Source: Escherichia phage REP1
Sequence record: OQ174500.1
Length of the DNA stretch: 64,000 bases
Direction: 5' to 3' (one strand)
Notes under the pieces: generated by a model
Database searches by the model: none
What the model saw: only the letters and a program-made list of their open reading frames with translations
Told to the model about the DNA's origin: nothing
Shown: in pieces, positions 3,153 through 60,001 of the stretch
Position numbering within the stretch: position 1 is the stretch's first letter
Layout of the letters: every line of letters starts with the position of its first letter
Program-made: the position numbers and the translations under genes

Positions 3153-3207
3153 CCGCTTTATACCAAGGATGGTATAATGGTTCTAAGCCCTTTTAATTGA
3201 GATTATT

Positions 3208-3615
3208 ATGAAACAGTTGATAATTAAAAGATTGAATTTATTGATATGTTGTTTATGCGTAGTAGTTGCATATGGTTATTATGCTATTAATGATTATATG
3301 CATTATAAAGATTATGATGTTACTGTAGTTAATACCTTTACAGGAACTCAAGGAAAGGGGTCTAGTTTATCGTTTATTGCCGTATATGAACTCAAAGACG
3401 GTTATAGATTTAGCGAATATATTTCCCCAGAGATGTATTCATCAATAGAAAAAGACGATAATATTACTGTAAGTTTACGTCCTTTCGACGTAAAACAGAC
3501 ATTGTTTGATAATATTGTTTGGTTCTTTGGAATGGTATTAGTTCAATCTGTATGCGGTGCTTATATAGTCTTTTCCATCATATTCTGCGTATTTAGTAAA
3601 ATTGAAATTGAGTGA
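3208..3615 (+). CDS. predicted membrane protein
   Basis: 135 aa, hydrophobic N- and C-terminal segments, very AT-rich. Confidence 0.55.
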   Translation: MKQLIIKRLNLLICCLCVVVAYGYYAINDYMHYKDYDVTVVNTFTGTQGKGSSLSFIAVYELKDGYRFSEYISPEMYSSIEKDDNITVSLRPFDVKQTLFDNIVWFFGMVLVQSVCGAYIVFSIIFCVFSKIEIE

Positions 3616-3622
3616 GGAAAAT

Positions 3623-4510
3623 ATGTCAGTAGTAATTAATAATGTCAATGCAGTAATTAAATCTTTAGTTAATAAAAAATTGAATGAATGGACTGTACTT
3701 CGTCGTGGAGAGCCAGATAAATTTTTTCATAGATTTAACCCAACTTTGGATTTGAATGTTATTGACAGAGATGTTCATGCAGAAATTTTAGATAAGTTTA
3801 AAGTTGATATTGGATTTGGATTAGAAAAACATTTACAGCGAACAAACGGGTCTGGAATGGGTTTATCTAATCGCATCATGAAAGCCCTTAATAAAATTGG
3901 AGCATTGTCTCGCATTAACGCGAGTGAAATTCTTCGCAATTATAATAAAGGATATGACCTTTATGGTCGACTAATGCCGAAATTGTCATTCGATCAAATG
4001 ATTGCGGATTTGTGGGAAAATCAACGACGATTATTAGCATTAGGTGCTCGATTGGCTAAAGGTCTAGATAAACAAATGATTTTTAAGACCAATAATACAG
4101 AAGACCTTAAATGCTTTAAATTTAGTATTCGCGGAGATGATTATTACATCAGAGCTCGCTCTACAGATTATGTTAATATGGGACATCATCTCTGTTTAGC
4201 TTTTGAAGTTTTAAAAGAAACCGGAACATTAGAATATTCGTCTGGTGCAAAATGCCCGATTGGTTCAAGTTGTATTTTAATTTATCGCCCGGATGAATCC
4301 AGTTCATCTAAATTACCTACAAAACCTGTACCAGTTCGTAGTAACGAAAAACATTCTGAACAAATTGATTATTTTAATAAGCAAATTGAAGAGCTGAATA
4401 TTTCTATTCAACAGTATGACGATGAAATTTTCAGACTATCTGGATTGAGTAGTAAAGCTAAATCTGAGCGTGAAAAATTAATTAAAATTGTTGATTTACT
4501 TAAATCTTAA
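3623..4510 (+). CDS. hypothetical protein with C-terminal coiled-coil tail (array member 1 of 4)
   Basis: ATG 3623 after GAGGAAA RBS; C-terminal heptad-like amphipathic segment. Confidence 0.6.
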   Translation: MSVVINNVNAVIKSLVNKKLNEWTVLRRGEPDKFFHRFNPTLDLNVIDRDVHAEILDKFKVDIGFGLEKHLQRTNGSGMGLSNRIMKALNKIGALSRINASEILRNYNKGYDLYGRLMPKLSFDQMIADLWENQRRLLALGARLAKGLDKQMIFKTNNTEDLKCFKFSIRGDDYYIRARSTDYVNMGHHLCLAFEVLKETGTLEYSSGAKCPIGSSCILIYRPDESSSSKLPTKPVPVRSNEKHSEQIDYFNKQIEELNISIQQYDDEIFRLSGLSSKAKSEREKLIKIVDLLKS

Positions 4511-15452: not shown

Positions 15453-16010
15453 ATGTCAGAAACTAAGCCTAAATATAATTACGTAAACAATAAAGAGCTT
15501 TTACAAGCTATTATTGATTGGAAAACAGAATTAGCAAATAATAAAGACCCAAATAAAGTAGTTCGTCAGAATGATACTATCGGATTAGCCATTATGCTTA
15601 TTGCAGAAGGCTTATCTAAGCGTTTCAACTTTTCAGGATACACCCAGTCTTGGAAACAAGAAATGATTGCAGATGGTATAGAAGCTTCTATTAAGGGGCT
15701 TCACAATTTTGATGAAACGAAATATAAAAACCCACATGCATATATAACTCAAGCTTGTTTTAATGCATTCGTCCAGCGTATTAAAAAAGAACGTAAGGAA
15801 GTTGCAAAGAAATATAGTTACTTCGTTCACAATGTCTATGACAGCCGTGACGACGATATGGTTGCGTTAGTAGATGAAACTTTTATTCAAGACATCTATG
15901 ATAAAATGACGCATTACGAAGAATCAACCTATAGAACACCGGGGGCTGAAAAGAAAAGTGTTGTAGACGATTCTCCTAGTTTGGATTTTTTATATGAGGC
16001 TAACGATTAA
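15453..16010 (+). CDS. 55: late-transcription sigma factor gp55
   Basis: 185 aa from ATG 15453 ([20 protein letters not shown]...), matches recalled T4 gp55; AAGAGGTGA RBS. Confidence 0.9.
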
Positions 16011-18949: not shown

Positions 18950-19946
18950 TTGGCATTTAGGCGTTAAAGCTGATGATGAGTGGATTCGCGGTATTCAAAT
19001 TGATGGAATTAAGCAAGCGATAGAATATTCTAAGAAAAATGGAATTACGGTATGGATTCAATACGGTGATATTTTTGATGTGCGAAAAGCGATCACGCAT
19101 AAAACTATGGAGTTTGCCCGTGAAATAGTTCAAATGCTTGATGGTGCTGGAATCACATTACATACTATTGTAGGAAATCACGATCTCCACTACAAAAATG
19201 TAATGCATCCAAATGCTTCTACTGAGCTTTTGGCTAAATATCCTAATGTTAAAGTATATGATAAGCCTACTACAGTAGATTTTGACGGATGTTTGATTGA
19301 TTTAATTCCTTGGATGTGTGAAGAAAATACTGGTGAAATTCTTGAACACATCAAAACTTCATCTGCTTCTTTTTGTGTTGGTCACTGGGAACTGAATGGA
19401 TTTTATTTTTATAAAGGAATGAAATCTCACGGTCTTGAACCTGATTTCCTTAAGACTTATAAAGAAGTGTGGTCTGGTCACTTCCATACTATCTCTGAGG
19501 CTGCTAACGTCAGATATATTGGGACACCATGGACACTAACTGCAGGTGACGAGAATGACCCTCGCGGGTTCTGGATGTTTGATACAGAAACAGAACGAAT
19601 GGAATTTATTCCAAACAATACTACCTGGCATCGTAGAATTCATTATCCATTTAAAGGAAAAATTGACTATAAAGATTTTACAAATCTATCAGTACGTGTT
19701 ATAGTAACTGAAGTAGACAAAAATCTGACGAAGTTTGAATCTGAACTAGAGAAAGTTGTGCATTCATTACGAGTTGTGTCAAAGATTGATAACTCTGTCG
19801 AGTCAGATGACAGTGAAGAAGTTGAAGTTCAATCTCTTCAGACGTTGATGGAAGAATACATTAATGCAATTCCAGACATCACTGATTCTGATCGCGAAGC
19901 ACTTATTCAATATGCAAATCAGTTATATGTAGAGGCAACACAATGA
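18927..19946 (+). CDS. 47: recombination nuclease subunit gp47 (Mre11-like)
   Basis: 339 aa; phosphoesterase motifs LGDWHLG, GNHD. Confidence 0.85.
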   Translation: MKILNLGDWHLGVKADDEWIRGIQIDGIKQAIEYSKKNGITVWIQYGDIFDVRKAITHKTMEFAREIVQMLDGAGITLHTIVGNHDLHYKNVMHPNASTELLAKYPNVKVYDKPTTVDFDGCLIDLIPWMCEENTGEILEHIKTSSASFCVGHWELNGFYFYKGMKSHGLEPDFLKTYKEVWSGHFHTISEAANVRYIGTPWTLTAGDENDPRGFWMFDTETERMEFIPNNTTWHRRIHYPFKGKIDYKDFTNLSVRVIVTEVDKNLTKFESELEKVVHSLRVVSKIDNSVESDDSEEVEVQSLQTLMEEYINAIPDITDSDREALIQYANQLYVEATQ

Positions 19947-25721: not shown

Positions 25722-28415
25722 AAAGAATTTTATATCTCTATCGAAACAGTCGGAAATAACATTGTTGAACGTTATATTGATGAAAATGGAAAGGAACGTA
25801 CTCGTGAAGTAGAATATCTTCCAACTATGTTTAGACACTGTAAGGAAGAATCAAAATACAAAGACATTTACGGTAAAAACTGTGCTCCTCAAAAATTTCC
25901 ATCAATGAAAGATGCCCGAGATTGGATGAAACGAATGGAAGACATCGGTCTCGAAGCTCTCGGTATGAACGATTTTAAACTCGCTTATATCAGTGATACA
26001 TACGGTTCAGAAATTGTTTATGACCGAAAATTTGTTCGTGTAGCTAACTGTGACATTGAGGTTACTGGTGATAAATTTCCTGACCCAATGAAAGCTGAAT
26101 ATGAAATTGATGCTATCACTCATTACGATTCAATTGATGATCGTTTTTATGTTTTCGACCTTTTGAATTCAATGTATGGTTCAGTATCAAAATGGGATGC
26201 AAAGTTAGCTGCTAAGCTTGACTGTGAAGGTGGTGATGAAGTTCCTCAAGAAATTCTTGACCGAGTAATTTATATGCCATTCGATAATGAGCGTGATATG
26301 CTCATGGAATATATCAATCTCTGGGAACAGAAACGACCTGCTATTTTTACTGGTTGGAATATTGAGGGGTTTGACGTTCCGTATATCATGAATCGCGTTA
26401 AAATGGTTCTCGGTGAACGTAGTATGAAACGCTTCTCTCCAATCGGTCGAGTAAAATCTAAACTAATTCAAAATATGTACGGTAGCAAAGAAATTTATTC
26501 TATTGATGGCGTATCTATTCTTGATTATTTAGATTTGTACAAGAAATTCGCTTTTACTAATTTGCCGTCATTCTCTTTGGAATCAGTTGCTCAACATGAA
26601 ACCAAAAAAGGTAAATTACCATACGACGGTCCTATTAATAAACTTCGTGAGACTAATCATCAACGATACATTAGTTATAACATCATTGACGTAGAATCAG
26701 TTCAAGCAATTGATAAAATTCGCGGGTTTATCGATCTAGTTTTAAGTATGTCTTATTACGCTAAAATGCCTTTTTCCGGTGTAATGAGTCCTATTAAAAC
26801 TTGGGATGCTATTATTTTTAACTCATTGAAAGGTGAACATAAGGTTATTCCTCAACAAGGTTCGCACGTTAAACAGAGTTTTCCGGGTGCATTCGTATTT
26901 GAACCTAAACCAATTGCTCGTCGATATATTATGAGTTTTGACTTGACGTCTCTGTATCCGAGCATTATTCGTCAGGTTAACATTAGTCCTGAGACTATTC
27001 GTGGACAGTTTAAAGTTCATCCAATTCATGAATATATCGCAGGAACAGCTCCTAAACCGAGTGATGAATATTCTTGTTCTCCGAATGGATGGATGTATGA
27101 TAAGCATCAAGAAGGTATCATTCCAAAGGAAATCGCTAAAGTATTTTTCCAGCGTAAAGATTGGAAAAAGAAAATGTTCGCTGAAGAAATGAATGCCGAA
27201 GCTATTAAAAAGATTATTATGAAAGGCGCAGGGTCCTGTTCAACTAAACCAGAAGTTGAACGATATGTTAAGTTCAGTGATGATTTCTTAAATGAACTAT
27301 CGAATTATACTGAATCTGTTCTCAATAGTCTGATTGAGGAATGTGAAAAAGCGGCTACACTTGCTAATACAAATCAACTGAACCGTAAAATTCTCATTAA
27401 CAGTCTTTATGGTGCTCTTGGTAATATTCATTTCCGTTACTATGATTTGCGAAATGCTACTGCTATCACAATTTTCGGCCAAGTTGGTATTCAGTGGATT
27501 GCTCGTAAAATTAATGAATATCTGAATAAAGTATGCGGAACTAATGGTGAAGATTTCATCGCAGCAGGTGATACTGATTCGGTATATGTTTGTGTAGATA
27601 AAGTTATTGAAAAAGTTGGTCTTGACCGATTCAAAGAGCAGAACGATTTGGTTGAATTCATGAATCAGTTCGGTAAGAAAAAGATGGAACCTATGATTGA
27701 TGTTGCATATCGTGAGTTATGTGATTATATGAATAACCGCGAGCATCTGATGCATATGGACCGTGAAGCTATTTCTTGTCCTCCACTTGGTTCAAAGGGC
27801 GTTGGCGGATTTTGGAAAGCGAAAAAGCGTTATGCTCTGAACGTTTATGATATGGAAGATAAGCGTTTTGCTGAACCACATCTAAAAATCATGGGTATGG
27901 AAACTCAGCAGAGTTCAACGCCTAAAGCGGTCCAAGAAGCTCTCGAAGAAAGTATTCGTCGTATTCTTCAGGAAGGTGAAGAGTCTGTCCAAGAATATTA
28001 CAAAAACTTCGAGAAAGAATATCGTCAACTTGACTATAAAGTTATTGCTGAAGTAAAAACTGCGAACGATATAGCGAAATATGATGATAAAGGTTGGCCA
28101 GGATTTAAATGCCCGTTCCATATTCGTGGTGTGCTAACTTATCGTCGAGCTGTTAGTGGTCTGGGTGTAGCTCCAATTTTGGATGGAAATAAGGTAATGG
28201 TTCTTCCATTGCGTGAAGGAAATCCATTTGGTGACAAGTGCATTGCTTGGCCGTCGGGCACAGAACTTCCAAAAGAAATTCGTTCTGATGTACTGTCTTG
28301 GATTGACTACTCAACTTTGTTCCAAAAATCGTTTGTTAAACCGCTTGCGGGTATGTGTGAATCGGCTGGTATGGACTATGAAGAAAAAGCTTCGTTAGAC
28401 TTCCTGTTTGGCTGA
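25719..28415 (+). CDS. 43: DNA polymerase gp43
   Basis: 898 aa; exonuclease motifs, polymerase motifs DxxSLYPS, KILINSLYGALG, GDTDS. Confidence 0.95.
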   Translation: MKEFYISIETVGNNIVERYIDENGKERTREVEYLPTMFRHCKEESKYKDIYGKNCAPQKFPSMKDARDWMKRMEDIGLEALGMNDFKLAYISDTYGSEIVYDRKFVRVANCDIEVTGDKFPDPMKAEYEIDAITHYDSIDDRFYVFDLLNSMYGSVSKWDAKLAAKLDCEGGDEVPQEILDRVIYMPFDNERDMLMEYINLWEQKRPAIFTGWNIEGFDVPYIMNRVKMVLGERSMKRFSPIGRVKSKLIQNMYGSKEIYSIDGVSILDYLDLYKKFAFTNLPSFSLESVAQHETKKGKLPYDGPINKLRETNHQRYISYNIIDVESVQAIDKIRGFIDLVLSMSYYAKMPFSGVMSPIKTWDAIIFNSLKGEHKVIPQQGSHVKQSFPGAFVFEPKPIARRYIMSFDLTSLYPSIIRQVNISPETIRGQFKVHPIHEYIAGTAPKPSDEYSCSPNGWMYDKHQEGIIPKEIAKVFFQRKDWKKKMFAEEMNAEAIKKIIMKGAGSCSTKPEVERYVKFSDDFLNELSNYTESVLNSLIEECEKAATLANTNQLNRKILINSLYGALGNIHFRYYDLRNATAITIFGQVGIQWIARKINEYLNKVCGTNGEDFIAAGDTDSVYVCVDKVIEKVGLDRFKEQNDLVEFMNQFGKKKMEPMIDVAYRELCDYMNNREHLMHMDREAISCPPLGSKGVGGFWKAKKRYALNVYDMEDKRFAEPHLKIMGMETQQSSTPKAVQEALEESIRRILQEGEESVQEYYKNFEKEYRQLDYKVIAEVKTANDIAKYDDKGWPGFKCPFHIRGVLTYRRAVSGLGVAPILDGNKVMVLPLREGNPFGDKCIAWPSGTELPKEIRSDVLSWIDYSTLFQKSFVKPLAGMCESAGMDYEEKASLDFLFG

Positions 28416-34809: not shown

Positions 34810-35103
34810 ATGAAAAAATTTATTTTTGCTACAATTTTTACTTTGGCTTCTTGTGCTGCTCAGCCTTCTATGGCAGGATATGATAAAGATTTGTGTGAAT
34901 GGTCTATGACTGCAGATCAGACTGAAGTTGAAACTCAAATTGAAGCGGATATTATGAATATCGTTGAGCGCGATCGTCCTGAAATGAAAGCTGAAGTGCA
35001 AAAACAACTTAAGTCTGGTGGTGTAATGCAGTATAATTATGTTCTGTATTGCGATAAAAACTTTAATAACAAAAATATCGTAACCGAAATCACAGGCGAA
35101 TAA
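34810..35103 (+). CDS. sp: periplasmic superinfection exclusion protein (Spackle-like)
   Basis: 97 aa with N-terminal signal peptide; position and size of T4 sp (61.3). Confidence 0.6.
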   Translation: MKKFIFATIFTLASCAAQPSMAGYDKDLCEWSMTADQTEVETQIEADIMNIVERDRPEMKAEVQKQLKSGGVMQYNYVLYCDKNFNNKNIVTEITGE

Positions 35104-35104
35104 T

Positions 35105-35737
35105 ATGATTTATTATATGCACAAAAATCCACCGTTTAAATACGGTAAATTTCCTGATGCACAATGTTATAATATAACGCCTGATGAAAATAACCGTGGA
35201 TATCTTATTGGCACAATTTTTGTAATTGTTAAAGATAACGAAATCGTTGCCTGGGCAGATTTTAAAGGTACAACATATGATGTTAATCCGGTGCCTTTCA
35301 CATATTACAATTTAATGGATTTGGCATACGATTATAATTGGTTTAATCATGACACTTTGGCTCATATTGAAGGTGTAGGATTTGATATTTCATATTCGGA
35401 ATACACTTTAAGCCCTATGAGTCGAGCCCATAAAGAACCTGAATATTTTTCATTTAGGAAACGTTTAAACTTTAAACGCAGCACAGAGTATGTCGGTGGA
35501 ATCTTTGTTAAAGATAATCGAATTATTCGTATTAATTATGCTTTGAGCGTTAGTCAAAAAGATATTGATGTTGATTTAGATTTCACTGAAAATAATATTA
35601 ATAATATTGCTTCTGTGTATTTTGGTATCGATCACAAAATTGTAATATGTGGATATGAATTACCGTTTGAAGAACAGCCTAAAGTAAAAGTTTCTATTGA
35701 CGATCAAATTTTTAATGCTTTTATGAATAAAGGTTAA
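35105..35737 (+). CDS. hypothetical protein (61.2 position)
   Basis: 210 aa; C-terminus IDDQIFNAFMNKG shared with the next ORF. Confidence 0.55.
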   Translation: MIYYMHKNPPFKYGKFPDAQCYNITPDENNRGYLIGTIFVIVKDNEIVAWADFKGTTYDVNPVPFTYYNLMDLAYDYNWFNHDTLAHIEGVGFDISYSEYTLSPMSRAHKEPEYFSFRKRLNFKRSTEYVGGIFVKDNRIIRINYALSVSQKDIDVDLDFTENNINNIASVYFGIDHKIVICGYELPFEEQPKVKVSIDDQIFNAFMNKG

Positions 35738-35738
35738 T

Positions 35739-36095
35739 ATGTATAGTTCTGAATTTTCATATTTAAAAATGGAAAAAATTTCATACGATTTTATAGATGA
35801 AAAGGTTTATTACAGTTTCCATGAACCGCGTTTTAATAGTGAGGTTGGGTTTATTGTAGTAAAAGACAATTTCATTTTAAAGATATATTCGGCATTAAAG
35901 GATTTTCACTACGAAAATATTAACCTAAAATTTGATAAAGAAAACGTTCGTAATTGTGCAGTAACAATTACAGGAAATAAAGGTACATGTGTTATGCTAT
36001 CTGATGAAATTAATGATTTGCTAAATGATGCAGAAAATATTACTGCGCCATCTATTGATGACCAAATTTTTAATGCTTTTATGAATAGAGGTTAA
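35739..36095 (+). CDS. hypothetical protein (61.1 position)
   Basis: 118 aa; C-terminus IDDQIFNAFMNRG shared with the previous ORF. Confidence 0.55.
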   Translation: MYSSEFSYLKMEKISYDFIDEKVYYSFHEPRFNSEVGFIVVKDNFILKIYSALKDFHYENINLKFDKENVRNCAVTITGNKGTCVMLSDEINDLLNDAENITAPSIDDQIFNAFMNRG

Positions 36096-36096
36096 T

Positions 36097-36261
36097 ATGA
36101 AAACATATAAAGAATTTATTAAAGAAGATATGGTCGCTGGAGATTCAGGTGGTAATCCTGAAAATATCTCTACTGGAACAACGTCAGGTGCTGTAGTAAA
36201 TAAAGGTCCTGAACAGATTCCTAAAAAGAAAAAAGAGGAATCTAAAGAAAAAGAAGAGTAA
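36097..36261 (+). CDS. hypothetical small lysine/glutamate-rich protein
   Basis: 54 aa, tightly packed between neighbours; not in the ORF track. Confidence 0.4.
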   Translation: MKTYKEFIKEDMVAGDSGGNPENISTGTTSGAVVNKGPEQIPKKKKEESKEKEE

Positions 36262-36263
36262 AA

Positions 36264-37292
36264 ATGTCATCAATACCTTGGATTGATAATGAGTTTGCAT
36301 ACCGTGCATTAGCTCATCTACCTAAATTCACACAAGTAAATAATAGTTCAACTTTTAAATTACGGTTTAGATGTCCTGTTTGTGGAGATTCAAAAACCGA
36401 TCAAAATAAAGCCCGTGGATGGTATTATGGCGATAATAATGAAGGAAATATTCATTGTTATAACTGTAATTATCATGCACCAATCGGAATATATTTAAAG
36501 GAGTTTGAACCTGATTTATATCGTGAGTATATCTTTGAAATAAGAAAAGAAAAAGGTAAAAGTCGTCCAGTAGAAAAACCTAAAGAACTTCCTAAGCAAC
36601 CTGAGAAGAAAATAATTAAATCTCTTCCGTCATGTGTTAGATTAGATAAACTGGCGGAAGACCATCCAATTATAAAATATGTAAAAGCTCGTTGTATTCC
36701 AAAGGATAAATGGAAATATCTTTGGTTTACAACCGAATGGCCTAAATTAGTTAATAGCATAGCACCGGGAACATACAAAAAGGAAATTTCTGAGCCTCGT
36801 CTTGTTATTCCAATTTATAATGCTAATGGAAAAGCTGAGTCTTTTCAAGGACGTGCATTAAAGAAAGATGCTCCACAAAAGTATATCACCATCAAAGCTT
36901 ATCCTGAGGCAACAAAAATTTACGGTGTTGAACGAGTTAAAGATGGTGATGTATATGTTCTAGAAGGACCCATCGATTCACTTTTTATTGAAAATGGTAT
37001 AGCCATTACTGGCGGTCAATTAGACCTAGAAGTTGTTCCATTTAAAGATAGACGAGTGTGGGTTTTAGATAATGAACCTCGTCACCCTGACACTATCAAA
37101 CGAATGACTAAATTAGTTGATGCAGGAGAAAGGGTTATGTTTTGGGATAAATCTCCCTGGAAATCAAAAGATGTTAATGATATGATTAGAAAGGAAGGTG
37201 CAACCCCTGAACAAATTATGGAATATATGAAAAATAATATTGCCCAGGGGTTGATGGCTAAAATGCGGTTATCTAAATATGCTAAGATTTAA
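36264..37292 (+). CDS. 61: DNA primase gp61
   Basis: 342 aa; N-terminal zinc ribbon CPVCGDS...CYNC; TOPRIM-like region. Confidence 0.9.
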   Translation: MSSIPWIDNEFAYRALAHLPKFTQVNNSSTFKLRFRCPVCGDSKTDQNKARGWYYGDNNEGNIHCYNCNYHAPIGIYLKEFEPDLYREYIFEIRKEKGKSRPVEKPKELPKQPEKKIIKSLPSCVRLDKLAEDHPIIKYVKARCIPKDKWKYLWFTTEWPKLVNSIAPGTYKKEISEPRLVIPIYNANGKAESFQGRALKKDAPQKYITIKAYPEATKIYGVERVKDGDVYVLEGPIDSLFIENGIAITGGQLDLEVVPFKDRRVWVLDNEPRHPDTIKRMTKLVDAGERVMFWDKSPWKSKDVNDMIRKEGATPEQIMEYMKNNIAQGLMAKMRLSKYAKI

Positions 37293-37489
37293 ATTAACCC
37301 AACTAAAGCAAATGCTAAATCTACAAATGTATCAAGAGTAACCACTGGAATATTAATACCATGTGCAATTGCAATAGGTGATAGAATAAAGTTCCAGAGT
37401 AAAATTCCTACCATAGCAGAAATAGTAAAAGCTATACGTTTTTTATTACCTTTTATGGCATTAACAAGTGCCATTAATTTTTGTACCAT
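37289..37489 (-). CDS. small membrane protein on the opposite strand
   Basis: 66 aa with two hydrophobic helices; fills the 61-56 gap, 3' end overlaps the gene 61 stop. Confidence 0.4.
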   Translation of the reverse strand: MVQKLMALVNAIKGNKKRIAFTISAMVGILLWNFILSPIAIAHGINIPVVTLDTFVDLAFALVGLI

Positions 37490-59365: not shown

Positions 59366-60001
59366 ATGTCTAAAGTAACTTACATCATCAAAGCTTCTAA
59401 CGATGTTCTGAATGAAAAAACCGCTGCGATTTTAATTACTATTGCTAAGAAAGATTTCATTACAGCTGCAGAAGTTCGTGAGGTGCATCCAGATTTAGGT
59501 AACGCAGTAGTTAATAGTAATATTGGGGTGTTGATTAAAAAAGGCCTGGTGGAGAAATCAGGTGATGGACTAATCATTACTGGTGAAGCTCAGGATATTA
59601 TTTCAAATGCAGCAACTTTATACGCACAGGAAAACGCTCCTGAACTGCTGAAAAAACGAGCAACTCGTAAAGCTCGCGAAATTACTTCTGATATGGAAGA
59701 AGATAAAGACTTCATGTTAAAACTTTTAGATGAAAATGGATTTGTTCTTAAAAAGGTTGAAACTTATCGTAGTAACTATCTCGCTATTTTAGAAAAACGC
59801 ACTCACGGAATTCGTAATTTTGAAATTAATAACAATGGAAATATGCGAATTTTTGGATACAAAATGATGGAACATCATATTCAGAAATTTACTGATATCG
59901 GAATGTCATGTAAAATCGCTAAAAACGGTAATGTGTATCTTGACATTAAACGCTCGGAAGAAAACATTGAAGCAGTAATCACTGTAGCATCTGAACTGTG
60001 A
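59366..60001 (+). CDS. motA: middle-transcription activator MotA
   Basis: 211 aa; size and position between 52 and asiA. Confidence 0.75.
   Translation: MSKVTYIIKASNDVLNEKTAAILITIAKKDFITAAEVREVHPDLGNAVVNSNIGVLIKKGLVEKSGDGLIITGEAQDIISNAATLYAQENAPELLKKRATRKAREITSDMEEDKDFMLKLLDENGFVLKKVETYRSNYLAILEKRTHGIRNFEINNNGNMRIFGYKMMEHHIQKFTDIGMSCKIAKNGNVYLDIKRSEENIEAVITVASEL

Follow-up and report, generated by a model that had tools for sequence, protein, structure and literature searches.

Tandem AdfA-family genes of a T4-like phage share a near-identical 3′ module that encodes an invariant C-terminal tail and carries the sequence of middle promoter P61

Two adjacent open reading frames (ORFs) of Escherichia phage REP1 (OQ174500.1), at 35105–35737 and 35739–36095, finish in almost the same DNA sequence. 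What is this shared end, why are its two copies so alike, and does it allow the second gene to be lost? The questions arose from an initial annotation of a window of 64,000 nt (the whole stretch of DNA analysed here), which proposed that recombination between the copies would precisely delete the second gene, so that the locus might vary between isolates. The window belongs to a Tequatrovirus (T4-like) genome; its best match over 3 kb was Shigella phage Phaginator (99.8%), and 665 phage records matched in all. The reading that we favour, and hold to be probable, is that two tandem AdfA-family paralogs have a 3′ module in common, seen here as the repeat, which combines a peptide, promoter P61 and the start of the next gene. 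Selection and occasional homogenisation would keep the copies nearly identical, and unequal recombination between them would shift one 358-bp unit.

A repeat search of the region returned a direct repeat of 49 nt with 46/49 positions identical (94%), the two copies starting 358 nt apart (Table 1). The initial annotation was right about the near-identical 3′ ends and about the coordinates of the ORFs, which encode 210 and 118 residues; its figures of 48 bp and about 355 nt gave way to the measured values, and the identity lay well above the 80% that it had set as a lower limit. No further site matching the 49-mer with up to three mismatches was present in the window, and the expected number of chance matches was 0.00 in 100 dinucleotide-preserving shuffles of the window. 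The copies differed at the three positions already annotated as variable: two synonymous changes in Asp codons (GAC GAT versus GAT GAC), and AAA versus AGA (Lys/Arg). Both copies closed with TAA-T-ATG, giving the same junction, as had been noted, and supplying the start codon of the following gene. On the 5′ side of TCTATT, reading of the alignments revealed no evident DNA similarity between the copies, whereas similarity continued at the protein level. The 49-nt repeat is thus the part of an old tandem gene duplication that has been kept best, a terminal segment with a sharp boundary. The right copy was identical at 49/49 positions to the end of T4 gene 61.2. The repeat is not an unknown element: its identity as an AdfA-family gene end and as P61, and the protein-level similarity of the two genes, had been missed in the initial annotation.

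The 210-residue protein matched the Pfam family PF23813 (AdfA) from residue 1 to residue 210 (E = 1.3e-137, 456.4 bits against a cut-off of 27) and PHROG 3781. AdfA was discovered through RB69 mutants escaping the DarTG1 toxin–antitoxin (TA) defence (PMC11257639); the name is from LeRoux et al. 2022, as cited in PMC11257639 and PMC9391042. It inhibits DarT, a DNA ADP-ribosyltransferase toxin (PMC11257639, PMC9391042), and neutralization has been established by experiment for the RB69 and T4 proteins (PMC11257639). The order of genes in the window (41 helicase, dmd, 61.4 or tifA, sp, the 210-residue ORF, the 118-residue ORF, 61.1 and primase gene 61) agreed with that of T4 and of more than 20 related loci. 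The first ORF therefore resembles T4 gp61.2 in its full-length PF23813 match, in its position between sp and 61.1, and in lying in the dmd–tifA–adfA stretch, which has been called an 'anti-TA island' (PMC9391042). The second ORF differs in having one domain rather than two. It scored 31.9 bits against the Pfam AdfA model, above the same cut-off of 27, covering model positions 113–211 only, and belonged to PHROG 4122; in BLASTP it was 38% identical to AdfA residues 111–210 (E = 2e-11). GenBank labels it 'RB32ORF033c, similar to gp61.2', and a literature search found no paper that mentions RB32ORF033c. PMC11257639 and PMC9391042 treat the presence or absence of adfA, and do not discuss the paralog, the invariant tail or the repeat. 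The short paralog is a candidate anti-defence gene.

Structure models were consistent with this domain relationship. AlphaFold2 (AF2) placed two strand-plus-helix domains in AdfA (residues 2–77 and 113–173), followed by a low-confidence linker (191–196) and a helix (198–207). The short protein (mean predicted local distance difference test score, pLDDT, 81) had a strand-rich domain with helices after it, in the same strand-plus-helix pattern; the domain was confident at 7–100, followed by a linker with values below 50 (101–105) and a tail helix (106–115). Profiles of the N-domain and C-domain groups, compared with their tails removed, matched at E = 4.4e-5 with 69% probability, which gives moderate support to an origin of the two-domain form by internal duplication. 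Neither the AdfA model nor that of the short paralog resembled a solved fold, and PADLOC and NCBIfam gave zero matches. The family is narrow, with only 10 matches among 1.84 billion representative proteins in a profile search.

The adfA allele of the window departs from that of T4 in two respects. Its first ~170 nt (35105–35280) were only ~52–58% identical to T4 (L004), as compared with ~88–90% in the 3′ half of the gene and ~95% in the flanks; the 5′ part of adfA encodes a hypervariable N-terminal segment with a sharp boundary, as is typical of genes in an arms race. At the specificity position at which DarT1-neutralizing alleles carry His (R164H in RB69 numbering), the window has Asn (residue 167, in TENNINNIAS, 35603–35605). 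T4, P0008, P0012, P0017, P0020 and P0021 have His in this column and the RB69-like P0018 has Arg, P0008 being a 95% identical relative; it is this H/R pattern that suggests the equivalence of the column to the published 'position 164'.

Translation confirmed that both proteins end in SIDDQIFNAFMN[KR]G, as expected from the annotated tail IDDQIFNAFMN[KR]G. Its core, DDQIFNAFM, was invariant in all 13 aligned family members, whose identity to AdfA fell to 26–37%, and the segment just before it was variable in length and sequence. In distant T4-like contigs, reached through profile matches based on the protein bodies, the peptide was exact and its codons were altered (CAG, AAC, TTC, GGC); one of these contigs kept the peptide yet lacked the TAATATG junction. 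Substitutions in the nine core codons were all synonymous. The invariance of the peptide despite synonymous changes and diverged bodies indicates strong purifying selection at the protein level. The same tail was found on proteins of 122–145 residues resembling the AdfA N-domain in Dhakavirus-like phages. A fully degenerate DNA pattern for DDQIFNAFM hit T4-like contigs only (16 in IMG/VR and 12 in metagenomes), and had 0 sites in 185,579 bacterial and archaeal species genomes. These searches, together with the 10 profile matches, show that the tail is specific to a small phage family. It is the one invariant feature of that family, which has not been recognized before. In the mechanism that we propose, the module has three overlapping roles, of which the first is to encode this tail (S-I-D-D-Q-I-F-N-A-F-M-N-[K/R]-G), kept unchanged in the members examined while the globular parts diverged almost beyond recognition.

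A second role is suggested by the position of a mapped promoter. Middle promoter P61 of T4 starts at 19122 (Table 1 of the Hinton review, PMC2988021, where it is attributed to Marshall, Sharma and Hinton 1999). In NC_000866, gene 61.1 is at complement 18966–19130 and 61.2 at complement 19132–19758, which places 19122 8 nt inside 61.1. By our own arithmetic, the TAATAT at −12 to −7 from this start combines the stop codon of 61.2 with a single T and the AT of the ATG that opens 61.1. The GCTT of TAATGCTTTT falls in the N-A-F codons, at −30 to −27, the canonical position of a MotA box, and a 12-nt spacer follows. Middle promoters were recognized by a MotA box, (a/t)(a/t)(a/t)TGCTTtA, with GCTT at about −30 to −27, and by TAnnnT 12 ± 1 bp downstream. 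Both copies of the repeat had TAATGCTTTT, which agrees with the consensus at 9/10 positions, and TAATAT after a 12-nt spacer; the three differences between the copies were all outside these elements, and the window encodes motA. Since the right copy is identical to T4 at 49/49 positions around the mapped start, P61 maps to it (Table 1). The same DNA would then be the MotA-dependent middle promoter that serves the primase gene and, as a third role, would supply the Shine-Dalgarno sequence and start codon of the following gene.

The locus resembles that of P61 in T4 in the sequence of the right copy, the placement of GCTT, the spacer and the TAnnnT −10 element, and differs in having two occurrences of that sequence at a distance of 358 bp, of which the upstream one is a predicted promoter. 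Duplication of the gene would have given two modules and, as predicted from the sequence, a pair of P61-type promoters. The record of phage Lutter (MT682714) annotates each tail as 'promoter', and the left copy, with identical elements, may be active. In that case it would give transcripts lacking the short-gene start codon, and would add to transcription of 61.1 and 61. The duplication of P61 in about a third of relatives is a new observation.

Could the repeat have been kept only as P61, with the peptide as a passive read-out? The exact P61 elements at canonical positions and the annotation of both copies as promoters in MT682714 would be accounted for in this way. The elements cover only ~16/49 nt, however, and do not extend to the 20 nt upstream, which encode S-I-D-D-Q-I-F. 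In addition, L015, L016 and L041 alter the MotA core or the −10 with the peptide unchanged, and the restriction of substitutions in the core codons to synonymous ones is unexplained by a promoter. Duplication of the promoter alone is thus very unlikely to be the reason for the repeat.

Three observations stand apart from this question. A loose pattern, TGCTT-N13-15-TANNNT, occurred 30 times in the whole window against an expected 14.3 ± 4.0, mostly on the + strand and upstream of genes. The left and right tails differed in the Shine-Dalgarno segment in every tandem genome seen (the window, at 35729–35734 versus 36087–36092, L034, L035, L060, L015, L016 and L056), with AAAGG or AGAGA/CGAGA in the left copy and AGAGG/CGAGG in the right. 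The change recurred in several lineages, and makes the last residues of the left tail KG or RD instead of RG. Other kinds of element were looked for and rejected: an RNA element, because the folds of the two copies were no better than those of shuffled sequences (z = +1.85 and −1.30); a terminator, as zero terminator-like sites were found; and a sigma-70 promoter, matches to which were at background level with none inside the repeat. Rfam matched nothing in the whole window.

The copies were more alike at the DNA level than the peptide requires. With the codon usage of the window and independent coding of the two tails, 5.4 of 12 degenerate codons would be expected to differ; the numbers observed were 2 in the window (P = 0.035), 1 in L014 (P = 0.006) and 0 in both RB18 and L060 (P = 0.0005). 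When the three promoter codons were left out, a hand calculation from the per-residue values gave P ~0.003 for zero differences. These numbers bear on the proposal that conservation of the peptide is sufficient, DNA identity being a by-product of an invariant tail and the strong AT-rich codon bias of T4-like phages. It is true that the tail peptide does not vary across the aligned family, that every tail codon is the genome-preferred one (frequencies 0.36–0.78), and that distant relatives keep the peptide with other codons. Besides the deficit of codon differences, however, 7 non-coding or stop bases were identical as well, and every base of the sequence agrees with a mapped promoter. We regard peptide conservation alone as an improbable explanation. 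That the copies are more alike than it predicts points to promoter constraint together with homogenization.

Comparison of lineages was also consistent with homogenization. The two tails of a genome differed by 1–3 nt within Tequatrovirus, as compared with 7–9 nt between Tequatrovirus and a clade represented by L015, L016 and L056, which are T4-like contigs from IMG/VR and metagenomes. Both tails of that clade share an Asn to Lys change (FMKR). Between the two clades, the short genes are orthologs (46–49% identity), and are closer to each other than to their own neighbours: identity to adfA of the same genome is ~30–38%. The duplication therefore predates the split of the clades. The tails look homogenized in Tequatrovirus and in L016, and we hold such homogenization, presumably by recombination, to be likely.

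A young duplication, with the tail or the whole second gene copied recently, the bodies driven apart by an arms race and no continuing homogenization, would produce a similar picture. Anti-defence genes do evolve fast, as the first ~170 nt of adfA illustrate (~55% identity between T4 and the window, in flanks of ~95%). Against this, the short-gene orthologs of the other clade (L015, L016 and P0023) are the closer relatives of the short gene, and Tequatrovirus tails remain within a few nucleotides of each other despite the age of the duplication. A recent origin of the repeat is therefore unlikely. The tandem of L015 (2023–2857), L016 (1951–2809) and L056 is of another kind, pairing an N-domain-like protein of ~145 residues with a short C-domain protein, each with a tail; it looks like an AdfA split into two genes, or the precursor of a fusion.

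The proposal that the locus varies between isolates was borne out by a survey of ~480 related phage records. The tandem state was found in 157 and the short gene alone in 141; subtraction left ~170–180 records with adfA only, T4 included. An evenly spaced sample of 40 rows contained 13 tandem, 13 short-only and 13 adfA-only loci. The counts agree with published data in which adfA was present in 13 of the 17 Tevenvirinae tested and absent from T2 (PMC11257639). The window is tandem, as were all 60 of the records closest to its adfA allele (span 908 = 550 + 358).

Precise removal of the second gene, as predicted by the initial annotation, is matched by the difference between natural phages. The T4 type of adfA also occurs in tandem, in RB18, KMB23 and L060, where the tails are 48/49 identical. 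Alignment of T4 with RB18 gave a single gap of exactly 358 nt, with one tail left at the junction and 38 mismatches elsewhere; the repeats are direct, the difference is one period and one repeat is retained. In the adfA-only phages inspected (T4, T6 and S1P5QW), the tail was the right-copy variant in every case. From these end states we infer that recombination between the repeats produced the 358-nt difference. The three-state polymorphism, in which T4 is short of exactly one unit, is a new finding.

Short-only loci tell a different history. In UFV-AREG1, RB14 and L013, the sp stop codon was followed by AGAGGTTAATATG, a 13-nt remnant of the tail, and then by the ATG of the short gene; the remnant was also present in L002 (1105–1119) and L036. 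It indicates that the ancestor of short-only phages was tandem, and that adfA was removed by a deletion independent of the 49-nt repeat.

T4 recombines at repeats of 6–10 bp within the same anti-TA island (PMC9391042), so 49 bp of near-identity should be ample. Recombination at short repeats in T4 yields deletions and segmental amplifications (PMC9391042, which cites Wu 1991 and Wu 2021). It resembles the present case in that direct repeats flank a unit in the anti-TA island, one copy remains and the products differ by one unit. It differs in that the repeat here is 49 bp of functional, selected sequence, not a chance match of 6–10 bp, and in that its recombination is deduced from natural variants and not from laboratory observation.

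The presence or absence of the short gene as a precise unit could also reflect a mobile cassette, in which the repeat is an attachment or target site used by site-specific recombination or by insertion with a homing endonuclease. T4-like genomes are rich in homing endonucleases, and one related locus (L038) has an HNH gene nearby. Neither the window nor any of the tandem phages examined had a recombinase or endonuclease gene within or beside the unit, and the idea was rejected on that ground. Moreover, the unit is a paralog of its neighbour and not foreign DNA, and the repeat is coding sequence common to every family member, single-copy ones included. We consider a mobile cassette scarcely credible.

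We return to the proposal of a shared 3′ module of tandem paralogs. Selection on the peptide and on the promoter, plus occasional recombinational homogenization, would maintain near-identity; direct copies of 49 bp in a highly recombinogenic phage would in turn allow unequal recombination, which would add or remove exactly one 358-bp unit, T4 representing the removed state. Several points weigh against this proposal. A precise-deletion derivative of the adfA allele of the window occurred in 0 of the 60 closest records, which indicates that deletion is too infrequent to be segregating within a group of close relatives. The end states look the same for a deletion as for an insertion, so that the direction of change is indistinguishable from them. 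The MotA core reads GCCT and not GCTT in L015 and L016, and L041 has TAAAGA at −10, with the peptide kept; the promoter cannot explain the module in these lineages and hence not everywhere. Homogenization is not universal either, since the tails of the non-Tequatrovirus tandems L015 and L056 differ by 7–9 nt. Finally, the tail helix had a pLDDT of only ~50–58 in both AF2 models, a low confidence.

What might the tail do? A short amphipathic helix, preceded by a flexible linker, is the form predicted for it. The residues I, F, F and M, spaced i, i+1, i+4 and i+5, share one face of the tail helix in the AF2 models. We tentatively suggest, as a possibility that we would not yet rate as likely, that it is a portable docking peptide which tethers interchangeable AdfA-family domains (two-domain, one-domain, and the Dhakavirus form of 122–145 residues) to one conserved partner. 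The short paralog would then be an independent counter-defence factor, and the module would serve as the right-hand joint at which cassettes are swapped, stacked or dropped among co-infecting T-even phages. The partner might be a replisome- or single-stranded DNA-associated protein, or a conserved surface of DarT-type toxins. C-terminal docking peptides have precedents. The single-stranded DNA-binding protein (SSB) of E. coli ends in a docking tail, ...DDDIPF. In the window, gp43 ends in ASLDFLFG (28392–28415 region) and gp55 in PSLDFLYE (15990–16010 region), which we take to be sliding-clamp-binding tails. The AdfA tail shares with them an acidic-then-aromatic C-terminal peptide after a flexible linker (S-[IL]-D-...-[IL]-F), and differs in its spacing (SIDDQIF versus SLDFLF) and in the seven further residues that follow. 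The likeness to the gp43 and gp55 tails is loose, and is offered as a possible lead, not as a classification. Any function of the tail is conjectural at this stage; since nothing else in the family is invariant across the members analysed, its 12 residues are an obvious first target for mutagenesis.

The locus has practical consequences for work on T-even phages. With the short paralog in ~300 of ~480 related records (157 + 141), a ready candidate anti-defence gene is at hand. Since the middle promoter of primase, P61, lies within the final 49 bp of adfA, deletion or recoding of adfA or of the short gene can alter primase expression and confound phenotypes. More generally, the locus is a natural example of how a functional sequence common to tandem paralogs may act as the substrate by which T-even phages gain and lose counter-defence genes.

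Table 1. Features of the adfA locus and associated genes; positions are those of the 64,000-nt window.
Feature	Position	Strand	Basis or remark
dmd and 61.4 (tifA in PMC9391042)	34308..34749	+	Pfam Dmd; DUF7279
sp (spackle), conserved left flank of the variable slot	34810..35103	+	Pfam T4_Spackle, E = 2.5e-44
adfA (T4 gene 61.2, anti-DarT factor A), 210 residues, two domains and C-terminal tail	35105..35737	+	Pfam, PHROG, position
Left repeat copy: last 14 codons of adfA (SIDDQIFNAFMNKG), stop codon, short-gene ATG	35693..35741	+	
Predicted second P61-type promoter, in the adfA tail	35713..35740	+	Identical MotA box, spacing and −10; predicted start 35747, 8 nt inside the short gene
Short one-domain AdfA paralog, 118 residues, absent from T4	35739..36095	+	BLASTP, Pfam, PHROG, GenBank notes
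Right repeat copy: last 14 codons of the short gene (SIDDQIFNAFMNRG), stop codon, 61.1 ATG	36051..36099	+	
Ortholog of T4 P61: MotA box TAATGCTTTT 36071–36080, −10 TAATAT 36093–36098	36071..36098	+	Predicted start 36105, 8 nt inside 61.1
Gene 61.1, 54 residues, 3′ of the right repeat copy	36097..36261	+	
Gene 61, DNA primase, served by P61	36264..37292	+	
motA, activator required by MotA-box promoters	59366..60001	+	Pfam MotA_activ E = 4.7e-61, MotCF E = 7e-66

Variation was also seen in the genes around the repeat. The 54-residue gp61.1 matched the C-terminal 46 residues of a 156-residue PHROG family, phrog_2086, and RB69-like loci (L023 and L026) have a 155-residue protein where 61.1 sits; taken together, these suggest that 61.1 may be a shortened form. 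Between genes 61 and 56, T4 has dam (259 residues), whereas the window is without dam there; 37289–37489 on the − strand contains only an ORF of 66 residues, RB69ORF029w-like and with no Pfam match. In L021 (IMGVR_UViG_2974741249, 3167–4400), primase gene 61 is apparently split into several ORFs, with an extra ORF of 176 residues ahead of them. The HNH endonuclease gene of L038 lies at 871–1491, between gene 41 and the dmd region.

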